Assembly (NCBI GenBank): GCA_945865375.1
Contig: CAMBEJ010000001.1
Span: forward strand, 8,064 to 72,063
Direction: 5' to 3'
Source of the DNA: Akkermansia muciniphila
Lineage (GTDB): Bacteria; Verrucomicrobiota; Verrucomicrobiia; Limisphaerales; F1-80-MAGS106
Length of the DNA: 64,000 nucleotides
Made by a program: the position numbers and the translations under genes. Each line of letters opens with the position of its first letter. Within the stretch, counting starts at the first letter, position 1. The notes beneath the pieces are model-generated. The model was not told the origin of the DNA and searched no databases. It saw nothing but the letters and a program-made list of their open reading frames with translations. Of this stretch, positions 9,876 to 52,327 are shown one piece after another.

Positions 9876-10639
9876 ACGGTTCCTTGGGTTAGAGCCTGCA
9901 CTTGCCCATCGACAAGCTCGATGACCCGGGGCGCACGCGATGCCACCCGCGAGTCGTGTGTGGCCACGATGAGCGTCACCCCTTTTTCGGCGCGCAACGT
10001 GCAAAGCAAATCGACAATCTCATCGCCCGTGCGCGAATCGAGATTGCCGGTGGGTTCGTCGGCCAGGATTAATTCGGGTTCGTTGATCAAGGCACGGGCG
10101 ATCGCCACGCGTTGTTGTTCACCTCCTGATAGCTCCCGTGGACGATGCTCGAAACGGTCCCCAAGACCCACTCGTTCCAAGAGCCTTCTGGCCCGCGCCA
10201 GACTGTCTTCCACGCCGTGGCGCGCCAGCCTGGCTGGCACGCAGACATTCTCCAAGGCATCCAACTCAGGGAAAAGATGGTAGGATTGGAACACCACACC
10301 AATTTTTAAATTCCTGAACCGCGCCGCCTGCGAAGGCGGGGCGGAGGCCAAGTCCACCGAACAAACCTTGACGGCACCCGCATCCGGAGTGTCGAGGCCA
10401 GCCAGCAAATGCAGCAGCGTGCTCTTCCCCGCACCTGAGGATCCGCGCAAAGCGACGAACTCCCCACGACTGACAACCAGGTCCACACCCCTCAAAACCT
10501 CCACGCAACGGCTTCCTAATCGATAGCTCTTGCGCACACCTCGTGTTTCAACAATCAAACAACCAGGATCCAGCCCCATCCCTGCCCCGTCTCGCCCCCT
10601 TGGGTCCACCAGAAGGGCGCGTCCGACGTCGTTATTCAT
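9872..10639 (-). CDS. lolD: LolD-like ABC transporter ATP-binding protein
   Basis: Walker [10 protein letters not shown], signature [15 protein letters not shown], Walker [13 protein letters not shown]. Immediately follows a LolC/E-type permease. The start could alternatively be M21 at 10579. Confidence 0.75.
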
Positions 10640-11909
10640 GACGTAGCGCCTCCACAGGTTTAAGCCGGCTTGCGTTCCAGGCCGGGATCAAGCCCGCCAC
10701 GACGCAAATCACCAGCGAAGCCCCGCAAATGATCGCCAGATCTCCCGGCACAACCCGGGCTGGCAAATCACGGAAATTATAGATGGACTCAGGGAACAAC
10801 TGGAACCCGGTGATCCGGCGCATAAAGTGCAAAAATTCATTCCTGTAAGCCACCGCAAGCAATCCGAGAAAATACCCCGCGACCACGCCGGTCACGCCCA
10901 CAAAAAGGCCCTGGCTCAAAAACAGCCAAAGCACCTGCCCGTTCGTGGCTCCCAAAGCCTTGAGCACCCCGATCTCGCGCGTCTTTTGCACCACAAACGT
11001 GATCATGGCGCTGGTGATTCCGAACGCCGCCACGATCATGATGAAGAACAAAAGGTAAAACATAACCTGCTTCTCCACCACCAACGCCTCGAGAATGTCC
11101 CCGTTATCCTCCATCCAGGTCGAAATCACAAAGTCCGGGCCCAAAATCTTGCCTAACTCCCGGCGCATCACCAACGCGCGCTCTGGATCCTTCACGTTAA
11201 CTATGATCCCGTGCACGCTGTCGTCCAAGCCATACAATTTCTGCGCATTCGCAAGTGAGGTCACCACAAACAGCTCATTATATTCGTAATAGCCGACATC
11301 AAAGATGCCCCTGACTTCGTAGTCATCCGGGAGCACCGCAGACTCCTCGCCATCCTGACGGCTCTGCTCCATCCGCTCCATCGTGGCCACAGAAAAAATG
11401 GCGATGAGATCCCCCACTTGAAGTCCCATCTTCCGCGCAAAGGCCTTGCCAACGAGCACGCCGGAACCGCTCAGGTCAAAGGTGCCGCTCACCAGACTCG
11501 AGGGAATGCTCGAGATTTTAGCTTCCTGGATTGGATCGGGACTGCATCCCCGGACCACTGGAGCCATGACTTTCGGCCGCCCTTCGAGGGGTTGCGTTTT
11601 GACCATCACCTGTCCGAGCACAAATGGCGATGCGGCGACCACCTCAGCATGTTTCTGAATGGTCCTCACAACCTCCGGGTAATCGCGAATCAATCCGTCG
11701 CCGTGATACACCTTCAGGTGCGCATTGAACCCAATGATTTTGTCCCTCAACTGCTGGTCAAATCCTGTCATGACACTGATCACGATGATGAGCACAGCCA
11801 CCCCCAACATGACCCCGATCACACAGATGAGTGTGATAGCCGACACGAATGTTCGTTTGGGCCGCAGATAGCGAAGCGCCAAGAATAGTTCGATGGGGAG
11901 ACGGAACAT
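10632..11909 (-). CDS. LolC/LolE-family (FtsX/MacB-type) ABC permease
   Basis: N-terminal LALRYLRPKR, a periplasmic MacB-like core, and a C-terminal FtsX-like 3-TM block ending [10 protein letters not shown]. Confidence 0.85.
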   Translation of the reverse strand: MFRLPIELFLALRYLRPKRTFVSAITLICVIGVMLGVAVLIIVISVMTGFDQQLRDKIIGFNAHLKVYHGDGLIRDYPEVVRTIQKHAEVVAASPFVLGQVMVKTQPLEGRPKVMAPVVRGCSPDPIQEAKISSIPSSLVSGTFDLSGSGVLVGKAFARKMGLQVGDLIAIFSVATMERMEQSRQDGEESAVLPDDYEVRGIFDVGYYEYNELFVVTSLANAQKLYGLDDSVHGIIVNVKDPERALVMRRELGKILGPDFVISTWMEDNGDILEALVVEKQVMFYLLFFIMIVAAFGITSAMITFVVQKTREIGVLKALGATNGQVLWLFLSQGLFVGVTGVVAGYFLGLLAVAYRNEFLHFMRRITGFQLFPESIYNFRDLPARVVPGDLAIICGASLVICVVAGLIPAWNASRLKPVEALRHE

Positions 11910-12039
11910 TGCGAAAGTATCCCAAAAAGGGGGCTGGGGTCAGAAAAATGTGGGATCAGGCGTCGGCACTAGGGGAAACATTAGAGGCCCCCATCCCCGG
12001 TGTCAATGAAGGCCCACTTTTTTGCAGCAGTTCCCATTT

Positions 12040-12250
12040 TCTGAACTCAGTAAAACGACCCTGTTCAGCCTGATGCTAAAGCCACCCCAGTTCCCCGCTC
12101 CTAATCGTAATCGTAATCGTAATCGTAATCCACCCCTCTGTTTCAAGGGCAACACCCGAGGATTACGATTACGATTACGATTACGATTAGGAAAAATGGA
12201 GCCGTTGAGGGGTTGCGCGTCCAGTTAATGGAAACACAGGGCCCCTAGGC
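12040..12250. repeat. ORF-less hexamer-stem palindromic element, copy A
   Basis: Perfect 32-bp stem cc(taatcg)4taatcc at 12100-12131 against gg(attacg)4attagg at 12160-12191, with a 28-nt loop. The left outer arm ends in ctcagtaaaac (12046-12056). Alignable by eye with the reverse complement of 18190-18381 and with 51954-52049. The right boundary is approximate. Confidence 0.8.
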
Positions 12251-12262
12251 CAATTCTATCCA

Positions 12263-12775
12263 GTGATCATCAATCGCGGACCGAATAACGCGTTTTATGC
12301 CCTGAACTCCCGTTGCTCCCACCAAAGCTGCATCGTCGAAGCACTGGATTCCAGCACGAACCTGATCAACTGCTTTTGCCACGGATCCATCTTCGCCATC
12401 GATGGACGGCGTATCGCCGGGCCGGCGTCCTCAGCATTGTCGAAGTACGCGCTCACGTTCGACGGTTCGAACCTTCTCGAGATTAAAATCCCGGGGCTTG
12501 GATACACCATCACAGCTTCTTCCGTGCAATCCGCTGATCAGGCAATCCCACGCATACGTCTCGATTTTCGGAGCCTCCGCAATGTGGATTACGAGGTTCT
12601 GTTCAGGGAATCACTGGACAAGGAAGCCACCGTCATTCCCTTTTCGCTCACTCCGGCGGACACCGCAGATCAAACCGTTTTTAGCGCCCCCACATCGGCG
12701 TCCGTCAGCCTGTTTGTGGACCGCACGTCTCCAAGCGGCTTCTACTCGATCGCCGTCCGCCTGACCGAGGCGTGA
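12263..12775 (+). CDS. Rieske [2Fe-2S] domain protein, N-terminally short (possibly truncated)
   Basis: CSHQSC...(17)...CFCHGS matches the CxH...CxxH Rieske ligand pattern, followed by DGRRIAGPA. Only 17 residues precede the first Cys. GTG start. The C-terminal 80 aa are of unknown fold. Confidence 0.6.
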   Translation: MIINRGPNNAFYALNSRCSHQSCIVEALDSSTNLINCFCHGSIFAIDGRRIAGPASSALSKYALTFDGSNLLEIKIPGLGYTITASSVQSADQAIPRIRLDFRSLRNVDYEVLFRESLDKEATVIPFSLTPADTADQTVFSAPTSASVSLFVDRTSPSGFYSIAVRLTEA

Positions 12776-18189: not shown

Positions 18190-18381
18190 TCAGACCTCAG
18201 TAAAACCCCTTGAAATCGTGATCTGGAAGCGCAACCCCAATTCCTCCATTTTTCCTAATCGTAATCGTAATCGTAATCCTCGAGTGTTGCCCTTGACACA
18301 GAGGGGTGGATTGCGATTAGGAGCGGGGAATTGGAGTTGCTCGAGCCTCAGGCTAAGCAGAGTCGTTTTACTGAGTTCTGA
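18190..18381. repeat. ORF-less hexamer-stem palindromic element, copy B (full-length termini)
   Basis: Termini tcagacctcagtaaaac (18190-18207) and gttttactgagttctga (18365-18381) are inverted. The hexamer arms are unequal: cctaatcgtaatcgtaatcgtaatcc at 18254-18279 against ggattgcgattagg at 18308-18321. The loop is nearly identical to that of copy A in the opposite orientation. Confidence 0.8.
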
Positions 18382-38790: not shown

Positions 38791-38990
38791 ACCTCTTGTT
38801 GAGCCTATGCGAAATCGAAAGGCTCAGAACTCCTGACAGCGCGTCTTGGATTCAGGGCCGCAAGACATTTTTCAGTCGCGTCAACGGCGGGCTAACATTC
38901 ATGAAAAACGAAGGCCGCCGGGGATCCGGTGATCACGTCGACCAGCCCTCCATATTCACCAATAGCACCCAGCTCACCCGAAACCACCGT

Positions 38991-39494
38991 GCGCCTCTCA
39001 GATTTTTCCAGATCTTCTCGTCATCGTCATCGTCATCGTAATCCTACTCGTAATCCCATGAACCGCCGATTCGACCACGAAAAGCTGGAGGTTTGCCAAG
39101 TCTCTTTGGCTTTCATCACATGGCTTGAGCCGATCCTGCAGAAATTGCCCAAGTCCCTCTCTGTGACCGACCCATTGGATCGGGCCAGTACCTCCATCCC
39201 TCTGACCATTGCCGAAGGCAACGGAAAATTCACTGGAGCGGATCGTTGCCGATAGTTTGACAATGCCCGTAGCTCCGCTTTGGAAAGTGCCGAAGCCCTG
39301 GATGTGCTCGTGGCCAAAGGCCGATGTTCTGGGGAGGAAGTTCTGTCAGGAAAAGACCGCCTCTGGAGCGTCGTTTCGATGCTAGTCGCCTTGATAAAGG
39401 CAAACTCCGATTACCGGTTGCACGACGGAAACCCGGGATAGGATTACGATTACGATTACGATTACGAGAAGATCTGGAAAAATCTGAGATGCGC
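38991..39494. mobile_element. IVS-like hairpin element: 54-bp hexamer-repeat inverted arms enclosing a four-helix-bundle ORF
   Basis: Arms 38991-39044 and 39441-39494 are reverse complements at 50 of 54 positions. (TCATCG/TAATCG)n on the left faces (CGATTA)n on the right. Related to the ORF-less copies at 12.1, 18.3 and 52.0 kb. Mobility is inferred, not shown. Confidence 0.6.
39058..39441 (+). pseudogene. Four-helix-bundle protein (TIGR02436 / 23S rRNA-IVS protein family) with an in-frame TAG
   Basis: MNRRFDHEKLEVCQVSLAFITWLEPIL...DRASTSIPLTIAEGNGKFTGADRCR * FDNARSSALESAEALDVLVAKGRCS... The family pattern continues in the same frame across TAG at 39253-39255. Confidence 0.8.
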
Positions 39495-39562
39495 GCGCCA
39501 GCTCCTCTCCTGAGCTCTGATATTTGGGTTGAATTGCCCCGGTTGACCACTACTTTTGTGGG

Positions 39563-50729: not shown

Positions 50730-51897
50730 ATGAAACAAACCAACGATCGATCGGTACAGAGGGTTTTCGTGGCCATTGGCATTGCCGCCGCGATTTTCGG
50801 CGGTGTGATGCTGTTCTCAAGGTTGCTGTTTTCAAAGAAGCCCAGCGAGACCCATGCCATCACGACCACAACCGCCCCCCCTTCGGTTGAGCGTCCAGAG
50901 CGGTCTTCGGAACGAGACCGCGTGGCGCGAGCTGAACTCACGCTTCGGGGTGCCGCCGCGAAGCTGAATTCCGCGCAATCCACCAAGAACGCCAGCGATT
51001 TGCTTCGCGAACTTCGTGCCACGCTTGGCAGTCTGAGTGCCGATGCCGCCTCTCAACTCGTGCAGCAGTTTTTGGCGGCGGGAACCGATGCCCGCACTTA
51101 TCTTCCGTTCGCGTTGGGTTCGGGGGGGGGCTTTGCAGGACGCGCCTTCTCTTCGGGTCTTTCTTCTGGATTATCTCGAACAGGTCGATCCCGCCGCCGC
51201 AGCCCGTGTGGGTTTGGAAGTGCTCAAACGGATGGACTCGTCTGACGAATGGGCACTGGCGCTGCGGAGCGTCGCCAAGTTCGACCCGTCAGCGCAGAGT
51301 CGCGCCCTCCTGGAAGAAAAAATGCGGCAGATATTTTCGCACGAACCCTGGCAGCAGAATCCGAGCTCGAGCTATCTCGAATCCTTCGATGTCGCCGTCC
51401 ATTTAGGCGGCAGCGATTTGCTCCCGGACCTCACAAGAATGCTGCGAATGACCAATAATCAGGCGGTCGCTCACGCCGCCTTTCTGGCAACCGACCGGCT
51501 GGTCCAGCGGGATCCGACTCCGGTGCTGGCCGCCTTGCTCACAGAGCCGGGAATGATGGAAGGCAGAGAAGCGACGCGGGCCAATTACTTTGCGCGAGCC
51601 GACGTGTCGAACACCGATCAGCGCCGATTGGTGCAAAACTACCTCCTGAACCCCAGGACGACCGAGTCCGAGCTGGACACATTCGCGGATTCGTTCCCGA
51701 ACGAGAACTCGATGCTAAGCAACAACCTCCTGACGAAAAGCGCGACACGCAGCGGATCCCAAATTCAAGCCCGGGATACCCAAACGTTGCGGATCATCAA
51801 TGCCTGGCTGCAAGATCCTCGTTTCAAAGGCGTCATTCCGCAGCTCAACACCATCCGCTCGCGCCTGGAATCTTTCCTGGCCAAACCCGCGCCGTAG
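50730..51897 (+). pseudogene. Membrane-anchored hypothetical protein with a frameshift in a G9 tract
   Basis: ORF 50730 (TM VFVAIGIAAAIFGGVMLF ... LPFALGSGG) and ORF 51037 (ALQDAPSLRVFLLDYLEQVDP...) fuse in frame if the G run at 51122-51130 were 8 rather than 9. Confidence 0.65.
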
Positions 51898-51953
51898 TGG
51901 CGATGACGGTTCATGGAAATGGAGAACCCCGCACAAAGGGACGCGAATTCATC

Positions 51954-52049
51954 GGTAACACCCGTGGATTACGATTAGGATTACGATTAGGAAAAATGGA
52001 GGAATTGGGGTTGCGCGTCCAGATCACGATTTCAAGGGATTTTACTGAG
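51954..52049. repeat. Solo arm of the hexamer-stem element, copy D
   Basis: ggtaacacccgtggattacgattaggattacgattaggaaaaatggaggaattggggttgcgcgtccagatcacgatttcaagggattttactgag matches one arm of copy B almost base for base. No complementary arm is present. Confidence 0.75.
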
Positions 52050-52327
52050 GTCCGAAGTGAAGAGAAGAGTGGTCAATGCAAGACAAAGACAAGTCCATCG
52101 CCCTTCCAGGGCCAGTGGCAATGGGGTTGGAATCCGGGGGCGGCACTCGCGAACTTATCTGCCCCCGGCTAAGTTTCTGTATCCCATTCGGGGTTCTCTA
52201 ATCCCAGAAACCTGGAGGTTCCATCGAAAACGGCGAACAACCAGTGGTTCCCGCGCGTGATGCAGTAGGGCTTAATCGAGGGACTCTCGTCTCTCAGGTT
52301 GGCTAGTGAATGTGCGGGGCGGGATCC

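Follow-up and report, generated by a model that had tools for sequence, protein, structure and literature searches.

What is the hexamer-repeat hairpin that stands between a lolE-like permease gene (10632-11909, minus strand, divergent start) and an ORF from 12263 in the window, the 64,000-nt stretch of DNA analysed here? The left arm (12099-12131, plus strand) reads TCC (TAATCG)x4 TAATCC and the right arm (12160-12192, plus strand) reads GGATTA (CGATTA)x4 GGA, its exact reverse complement. Both arms are 33 nt long, they are 100% complementary and they lie 28 nt apart. The initial annotation had described a perfect 32-bp stem; the stem is indeed perfect, and one base longer per side (33 nt). 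The loop (12132-12159, plus strand; ACCCCTCTGTTTCAAGGGCAACACCCGA) has the claimed 28 nt, is specific to one repeat family, here called S, and differs at 2/28 positions from the loop of a second copy in the window (copy B), in line with the claim that the two are nearly identical. The claimed absence of an ORF also held, the ORFs that run across the hairpin being only repeat-encoded (NRNRNR / LRLRLR; 68 and 50 aa) and not genes.

The hexamer pattern was matched 15 times in the 64-kb window versus 0 times in 100 shuffles. We ran the folding check that the initial annotation had proposed and found the region of the hairpin, hereafter copy A, to be far more stable than shuffled controls (z about -9). 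Folded as RNA, 12030-12260 reached -93.8 kcal/mol on the plus strand and -104.8 kcal/mol on the minus strand (z about -9.2 each); folded as DNA, 12041-12226 reached -43.9 kcal/mol (z -9.3). Rfam covariance models gave nothing at E <= 1 within 11900-12400, and at the gathering score the whole window yielded one tRNA only. Promoter and terminator scans returned no promoter-like or terminator-like motif. We conclude that the hairpin is a broken transposon copy, neither a gene nor a riboswitch-like RNA.

Family S and the origin of its ends

The initial annotation had proposed a genome-wide search with copies A-D. Copies A, B and D proved to be one repeat family, S, with about 120-137 copies in the genome to which the window belongs (G000), a 93.6% complete draft of 5.79 Mb in 266 contigs with 57% G+C. 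Matches to the left, loop and right modules of S numbered 137, 122 and 122, respectively, at 93-97% identity, and a 16-nt motif from the S end had 149 matches in G000 versus no more than 2 in any of 40 relatives. The family consensus is about 215 nt long, has no transposase ORF and is crossed only by repeat-encoded pseudo-ORFs. Its left side reads CTGAACTCAGTAAAACGACCCTGTTTAGCCTGATGCTCGAGCAACTCCAATTCCCTGCTCC and its right side GGAAAAACGGAGGAATTGGGGTTGCGCGCCCAGATCACGATTTCAACCGGTTTTACTGAGGTCTG, and complete copies carry the terminal inverted repeats CTGAACTCAGTAAAAC and GTTTTACTGAGGTCTG. A complete S element consists of an end derived from an insertion sequence (IS; terminal inverted repeat plus about 45 nt), a TAATCG run, a 27-28-nt loop, a CGATTA run and a second IS-derived end. 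An S backbone devoid of the hairpin was not seen in 95 pairs of left and right modules: the smallest spacing was 72 nt and always held arms and loop. The elements occur in both orientations and many are truncated, copies A and D included.

How does S insert? Under a strict pattern that recognised both ends, 21 copies were complete; their 5-bp target duplications were perfect in 9/21 and matched at 4 of 5 positions in 6 more, and mostly read A-N-N-N-T. One S copy (G000:C6:144-393) is inserted in another repeat family, of which more than 20 uninterrupted paralogues span the reconstructed empty site with a single ATTCT. This paralogous empty site attests directly to insertion with a 5-bp duplication. 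Thus, family S inserts with a 5-bp target duplication, A-N-N-N-T.

Copy A follows the S consensus over most of its length. Its left module (12041-12098, plus strand, as aligned to the consensus) comprises the terminal inverted repeat CTGAACTCAGTAAAAC (12041-12056) and about 42 nt of subterminal sequence, from an IS end. Directly outside lies a presumed left target-site duplication, ATTTT (12036-12040), that agrees with the A-N-N-N-T pattern of the family. The right module (12193-12226, plus strand; GAAAAATGGAG...GGGGTTGCGCGTCCAG) is truncated: the alignment is intact from 12041 to about 12224-12230 and then diverges, leaving copy A with its left terminal inverted repeat and without its last ~35 nt, the right terminal inverted repeat included. 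Since the right terminal repeat is missing, copy A is a dead relic. It is very probably a truncated, immobile copy of a non-autonomous transposon of about 215 nt, a foldback MITE. A search for an orthologous empty site of copy A found none: the lolE-like gene is present in the same-genus genome G002, and the sequence upstream of it (within 400 nt there) is unrelated.

The other S copies in the window differ in completeness. Copy B (18191-18380, minus strand) is complete, with unequal arms (about 4 vs about 1.5 units) and the flanking pentamers AGAGT and AAAGT. Copy D (51948-52054, plus strand) is 5'-truncated and starts about 50 nt past the end of ORF 51037-51897; what remains is part of the loop, in its CATCGG variant, followed by the right-hand arm, module and terminal repeat. 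All element copies examined in the window are intergenic. The loop is conserved in about 120 S copies, though no more than the flanks are. Among the relatives' genomes it was found outside G000 in the same-genus G001 only, at about 75% overall identity. An exact 26-mer of the loop and a 30-mer from the flank of copy A had no match in JGI metagenome contigs, which possibly do not cover the window's own genome.

Where do the ends of S come from? A rare match to the S end motif led us to a 2,704-nt IS (G021:C631:17687-20390; L097 88-2791) in a genome of the same order as G000 and a different family. This IS has imperfect terminal repeats of ~55 nt, is flanked by the 5-bp sequences AATAT and AATGT, and has an end, CAGACCTCAGTAAAACCG, that equals the right end of S at 18/18 positions. 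The 61-nt left module of S aligns with the first ~58 nt at each of the two IS ends (z 8.7 and z 11.8; equalled by 0/500 shuffles). The transposase gene is frameshifted into two overlapping frames that together match PF21804 (Transposase_29). At the level of sequence, these alignments show the ends of family S to be the ends of a 2.7-kb IS with a transposase of PF21804, a poorly characterised Pfam family.

Homologues of the G021 transposase (P0004, P0046 and P0095) were identified; PF21804 transposase homologues measure ~720 aa and typically stand alone on contigs of 2-3 kb, as expected of an IS, and some of them match PF01609 too. None of the NCBIfam IS-family models fits the G021 transposase, whose matches were PF21804 and weak IS701 and IS630-HTH hits only. 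This appears to be an IS family whose transposase is passed over as a 'hypothetical protein' by today's annotation pipelines. We also considered a subterminal hairpin of the G021 IS (CTAAATCC...GGATTAG) as a source of the S hairpin and rejected it: the S core and the interior of the right module compared with the IS interior gave z 0.3-1.8, which is not significant.

Both tblastn with the two transposase pieces and a profile search found no PF21804 transposase in G000, a result that in a 93.6% complete draft falls short of proving absence; decayed fragments of such a transposase are present in G002. Nor did the element ends in G000 reveal an autonomous partner: S or O terminal repeats (O being a second family, described below) never form a pair 0.7-4 kb apart, and 0/11 odd O-type ends adjoin a transposase ORF. 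A PF21804-type transposase would have spread the S copies in trans and would now be unassembled in G000 or lost from it. Because the assembly contains no PF21804 homologue, this mobilisation is something that we infer.

Family O and the four-helix-bundle cassette

A fourth element in the window, copy C (38989-39496, plus strand), has TAATCG-type arms, the left one consisting partly of TCATCG/TACTCG variants, around a PF05635 four-helix-bundle ORF. Its terminal repeats, GTGCGC(C/A)TCTCAGATTTTTC, are not those of S, and the sequence outside the arms of forward-reverse pairs splits the elements of G000 into the two families S and O. Family O has the ends GTGCGCATCTCAGATTTTTC... and ...GAAAAATCTGAGATGCGCAC, target duplications of about 9 bp, and 65 left and 91 right module matches. 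The O ORF has 127 codons and clearly belongs to PF05635/TIGR02436 ('23S rRNA intervening sequence protein', four-helix-bundle). The ORF of copy C is a pseudogene because of an in-frame TAG; intact alleles lie at G000:C177:5273-5653 and C8:25885-26253. The family also forms a series of internal deletions, with inserts of 383, 258, 225, 198, 141, 84 and 41 nt in which both ORF ends are always kept, down to the 41-nt insert CATGAACCGCCGATT|ACCGGTTGCACGAGGGAAACCCGGGA (C39:8156 and C41:10647). In G002, a multicopy element with an interior other than hexamer repeat ends in the O terminal repeat (GTGCGCATCTCAGATTTTTG); the repeat lies at about 120-137 at the ends of contigs C77, C92, C118, C216, C256, C262, C291 and C317, which break about 120 nt inside this element. 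Contig breaks at this depth fit an unassembled autonomous IS for family O.

Is the hairpin of S a shortened family-O element? The initial annotation had proposed that copies A and B are deletion derivatives of an ORF-bearing element, on the grounds that the junction of loop and right arm resembles the end of the four-helix-bundle ORF. This resemblance does not stand, since 11% of shuffles gave an end-anchored alignment as good. For the S loop against the whole O ORF insert, 71% of shuffles equalled the best local alignment, and the loop had no detectable similarity to the PF05635 ORFs and cassette tails examined. Part of the proposal survives: the (TAATCG)n/(CGATTA)n arms, innermost TAATCC/GGATTA included, are common to S and to the flanks of the copy C ORF, and O does decay by internal deletion. 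The part that fails is the derivation itself, as the loop is not recognisably from the ORF and the ends, the 5-bp duplications and the source IS of A and B differ from those of C.

It is accordingly unlikely, in our estimate, that A and B are internal-deletion products of the ORF-bearing element of copy C and that S is the end point of the O series. The identical repeat unit and innermost hexamers, the shrinking of O to a 41-nt insert with both ORF ends, and four chimeric S/O elements all speak for such a descent. Against it, the S loop is no sub-sequence of the O insert, as the shuffles indicate; terminal repeats, subterminal modules and target duplications (5 vs about 9 bp) differ; the S ends match the PF21804 IS, whereas the O ends belong to the other multicopy element in G002; and the S loop predates the split of G000 and G001.

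We favour, with some reserve, a looser relationship in which the central hairpin of S (arms and loop) is the gene-less relic of an IVS-type cassette, that is, of a PF05635 gene between inverted TAATCN arrays. Because the loop has no PF05635 similarity, it is the arms that carry the argument for descent from a gene-bearing cassette. The IVS-type cassette would ride a second, unrelated MITE chassis in G000, that of family O (copy C), and the S hairpin is probably a relic of such a cassette, yet not a shortened family-O element. Judged as a member of the cassette type, copy A has the inverted tandem-repeat stem and the repeat unit of the gene-bearing copies; it lacks the PF05635 ORF, and its loop is untraceable to the ORF ends, both of which the 41-nt O relics keep.

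The cassette is not peculiar to this genome. The O protein has its best 80 homologues, 53-89% identical to it, in MAGs that bear the labels Verrucomicrobiota, Planctomycetota, Kiritimatiellia, Lentisphaerae, Desulfobacterota, SAR324, Limnocylindrales, Binatia and Ignavibacteriaceae. Inverted TNHTCN hexamer arrays surround the gene in 71/78 homologues with enough flank. A strict test, which demanded two or more TAATC on one flank and two or more GATTA on the opposite flank, was passed by 50 of these 78 loci versus 0/66 control regions at a distance of 450-600 nt. Gene-less TAATCN hairpins with neither the S nor the O chassis also occur in other genomes of the order. Within the literature collection searched, no paper was found to connect PF05635 genes with tandem-repeat arrays beside them.

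L018 (DATJGF010000044.1, labelled Candidatus Limnocylindrales) encodes a four-helix-bundle protein 78% identical to the verrucomicrobial one, between TAATCG/GATTAAG arms, in a Chloroflexota-labelled MAG; this suggests that the cassette has crossed between phyla recently, or else that the binning is wrong.

G000 itself contains distant PF05635 paralogues, 29-35% identical to the O protein, that are set between inverted arrays of heptamers and lack a MITE chassis. The gene at G000:C57:16590-17010 is flanked by (GAATTCA)n/(TGAATTC)n arrays and that at G000:C241:100-700 (minus strand) by (GTGGCCA/GTGGTCA)n/(TGACCAC)n arrays. These heptamer-flanked genes are wedged among ordinary genes, one of them directly before the start of an aspartokinase gene.

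Could the arrays be sites at which the four-helix-bundle protein of the cassette binds or acts, with the ORF-less hairpins as satellites that depend on it in trans? This reading is compatible with a MITE, and we hold it to be doubtful. The repeat unit tracks the PF05635 subfamily, the 53-89% identical homologues having TAATCN-type arrays and the 29-35% identical paralogues GAATTCA or GTGGCCA heptamers, and two intact ORFs remain in G000. The same pattern is explained without any binding if arms and gene are inherited together as one mobile unit, and the insertions of S are explained by a DDE-type transposase. It is a speculative extension that the TAATCN arrays might be recognition or processing sites of the Avd-like four-helix-bundle protein of the cassette and that the cassette, itself mobile, might have boarded two unrelated IS-derived MITE chassis in this lineage. 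If this were true, the ~120 S hairpins without a gene would depend in trans, as satellites, on the few intact gene copies, and the repeat would serve as a protein-specific 'address', explaining why each PF05635 subfamily has its own 6-7-nt unit.

Under the reading that we favour, the outcome for the locus of copy A is deflationary. Gene-less hairpins with tandem-repeat stems are usually found without visible means of spread; family S supplies such a means, a classical transposon chassis with target duplications, and its IS relative can be identified. PF05635 genes between the same hexamer arms occur in Verrucomicrobiota, Planctomycetota, Desulfobacterota, a Chloroflexota-labelled MAG and further phyla, and unexplained short tandem repeats of bacteria are thereby tied to the gene family of 23S rRNA IVSs and of the DGR Avd protein, as a concrete pair of protein and DNA.

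Arm lengths, possible RNA function and hexamer arrays genome-wide

Is the duplex maintained by selection? Among 103 short-loop pairs, the lengths of left and right arm were uncorrelated (r = -0.09, p = 0.36). The arms, which ranged from 12 to 90 nt, were equal in 8/103 pairs and at least two units apart in 40/103; the longest single hexamer array in G000 measures 143 nt. The arms act as microsatellites, each gaining and losing units independently by slippage. Because arms that slip independently are seldom matched, the perfect 33-bp symmetry is an accident of copy A and not a property of the family. Uncorrelated arm lengths imply that a precisely matched duplex is not maintained, which argues against selection for a defined duplex.

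These arm lengths also bear on whether the hairpin is a selected structured RNA or processing site, such as an RNase III site acting to uncouple neighbouring transcripts or to make them less stable, a role that we consider highly improbable. The very strong folding (z about -9), the intergenic position of the window copies examined, and the homologous design of the Coxiella 23S rRNA, where RNase III cuts in a 28-bp stem with variable repeats (PMC4990558), would all suit such a role. It is opposed not only by arms that are uncorrelated in length and usually unequal, but also by the occurrence of both orientations, target duplications, IS ends and many truncated copies, by the lack of an Rfam match even at E = 1 and of a promoter- or terminator-like motif, and by a loop conserved no more highly than its flanks. 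If transcribed from a neighbouring gene, the duplex of copy A would plausibly, by analogy with the Coxiella IVS, be an RNase III substrate, as a side effect and not as a selected function.

That the element is a REP/REPIN-type repeat moved as single-stranded hairpins by a RAYT (Y1, IS200-like) transposase can be dismissed with near certainty: the repeat is intergenic, palindromic and high-copy and G000 has 25 Y1_Tnp PF01797 matches, but 0/16 Y1 genes on array-bearing contigs lie within 500 nt of a hexamer array (median distance 5.9 kb vs 5.1 kb for random positions), and the terminal inverted repeats and 5-bp target duplications of S are not made by Y1 transposition. Several of the G000 PF01797 matches consist of an N-terminal fragment and are embedded in long open frames (250-350 aa).

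Genome-wide, we counted about 490 hexamer arrays in G000 (243 forward, 249 reverse), which form 146 forward-then-reverse pairs. Distances between paired arms fall into classes of 26-48 nt (about 100 pairs), 82-85, 139-153, 197-230, 258 and 382-383 nt. Many contigs end in hexamer repeats, and the repeats appear to break the assembly, because for 50/200 unpaired arrays the contig ends no more than 600 nt away.

Two further repeats were seen in G000. The first is a third MITE of about 150-190 nt, running from CTAGCCAAACAGATTTGAAATTTGAACCACAGAGGCACAGAG to GGTTCAAAATCTGAGAGATAATTCATCGAGATTTAGGATTTAAGAATCTA, with CTAG/CTAA (IS5-like YTAR) target duplications; examples in G000 are C2:16124, C3:26461-26720 and C144 (minus strand). 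About 30/64 of its copies fall inside TAATC(C)|TAATCG arrays, which occupy only about 0.25% of the genome; this makes the hexamer arms a strong landing site. The second is another abundant foldback repeat, with the ends CACTACAGCGACAC...GTGTCGCTGTAGTG and internal CATCCGTGTCATCCGTG repeats (G000:C6:49336-49407, C81:157-231, C122:1638-1715 and more than 20 others). It is a target of S insertion and itself inserts into O, and certain S and O copies contain it (C16:41061, C189:8021). Hexamer repeats that end many contigs and attract further insertions matter for the assembly and annotation of such genomes.

Comparison with known systems

The closest counterpart of the gene-bearing cassette is the ORF-bearing IVS of 23S rRNA, as in Leptospira and in helix 45 of Coxiella burnetii, where it carries S23p (PMC4990558). 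The Coxiella IVS has a 28-bp stem with tandem GACAGAT heptamers that vary in number between strains, its S23p ORF is decaying, and RNase III cuts within the stem (PMC4990558). Family O is built alike, with a PF05635 ORF as the loop of a long stem, arms of short tandem repeats that vary in number and decay of the ORF by deletion. As in the 23S IVSs, a duplex of ~30 bp would be an RNase III substrate. Unlike them, copy A has no ORF, lies between protein-coding genes, is built of hexamers and not heptamers, and sits inside an IS-derived transposon with target duplications. The G000 assembly contains no LSU (23S) rRNA gene.

The architecture of S also recalls the eukaryotic foldback (FB) transposons, such as Drosophila FB and Tetris (PMC4079207). 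Their inverted arms likewise consist of short tandem repeats, the number of which varies between copies and between arms; unlike S, FB elements are eukaryotic, kilobase-sized and moved by another transposase, and the likeness is architectural only. REP, BIME and REPIN elements with their RAYT are, like S, abundant intergenic palindromes. REPs, however, lack both terminal repeats and target duplications and are found on either side of their RAYT gene, whereas the Y1 genes of G000 are not near the arrays; the RAYT mechanism is rejected because no Y1 match lies near them.

The nearest relatives in kind are bacterial MITEs derived from insertion-sequence ends, such as Correia/NEMIS of Neisseria, RUP of Streptococcus pneumoniae and Nezha of cyanobacteria. 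Like these, S is small, non-coding, high-copy, intergenic and foldback, with terminal inverted repeats, target duplications of fixed length and ends that match an autonomous IS. Unlike them, S has a middle made of inverted microsatellite arrays (12-143 nt) around a conserved loop, its arrays are common to a gene cassette and to a second MITE family with unrelated ends, and PF21804, the family of its partner transposase, scores above the cut-off of no NCBIfam IS-family model. Copy A is thus ordinary in kind, a dead MITE copy, and unusual in build, coming from a little-described cassette family.
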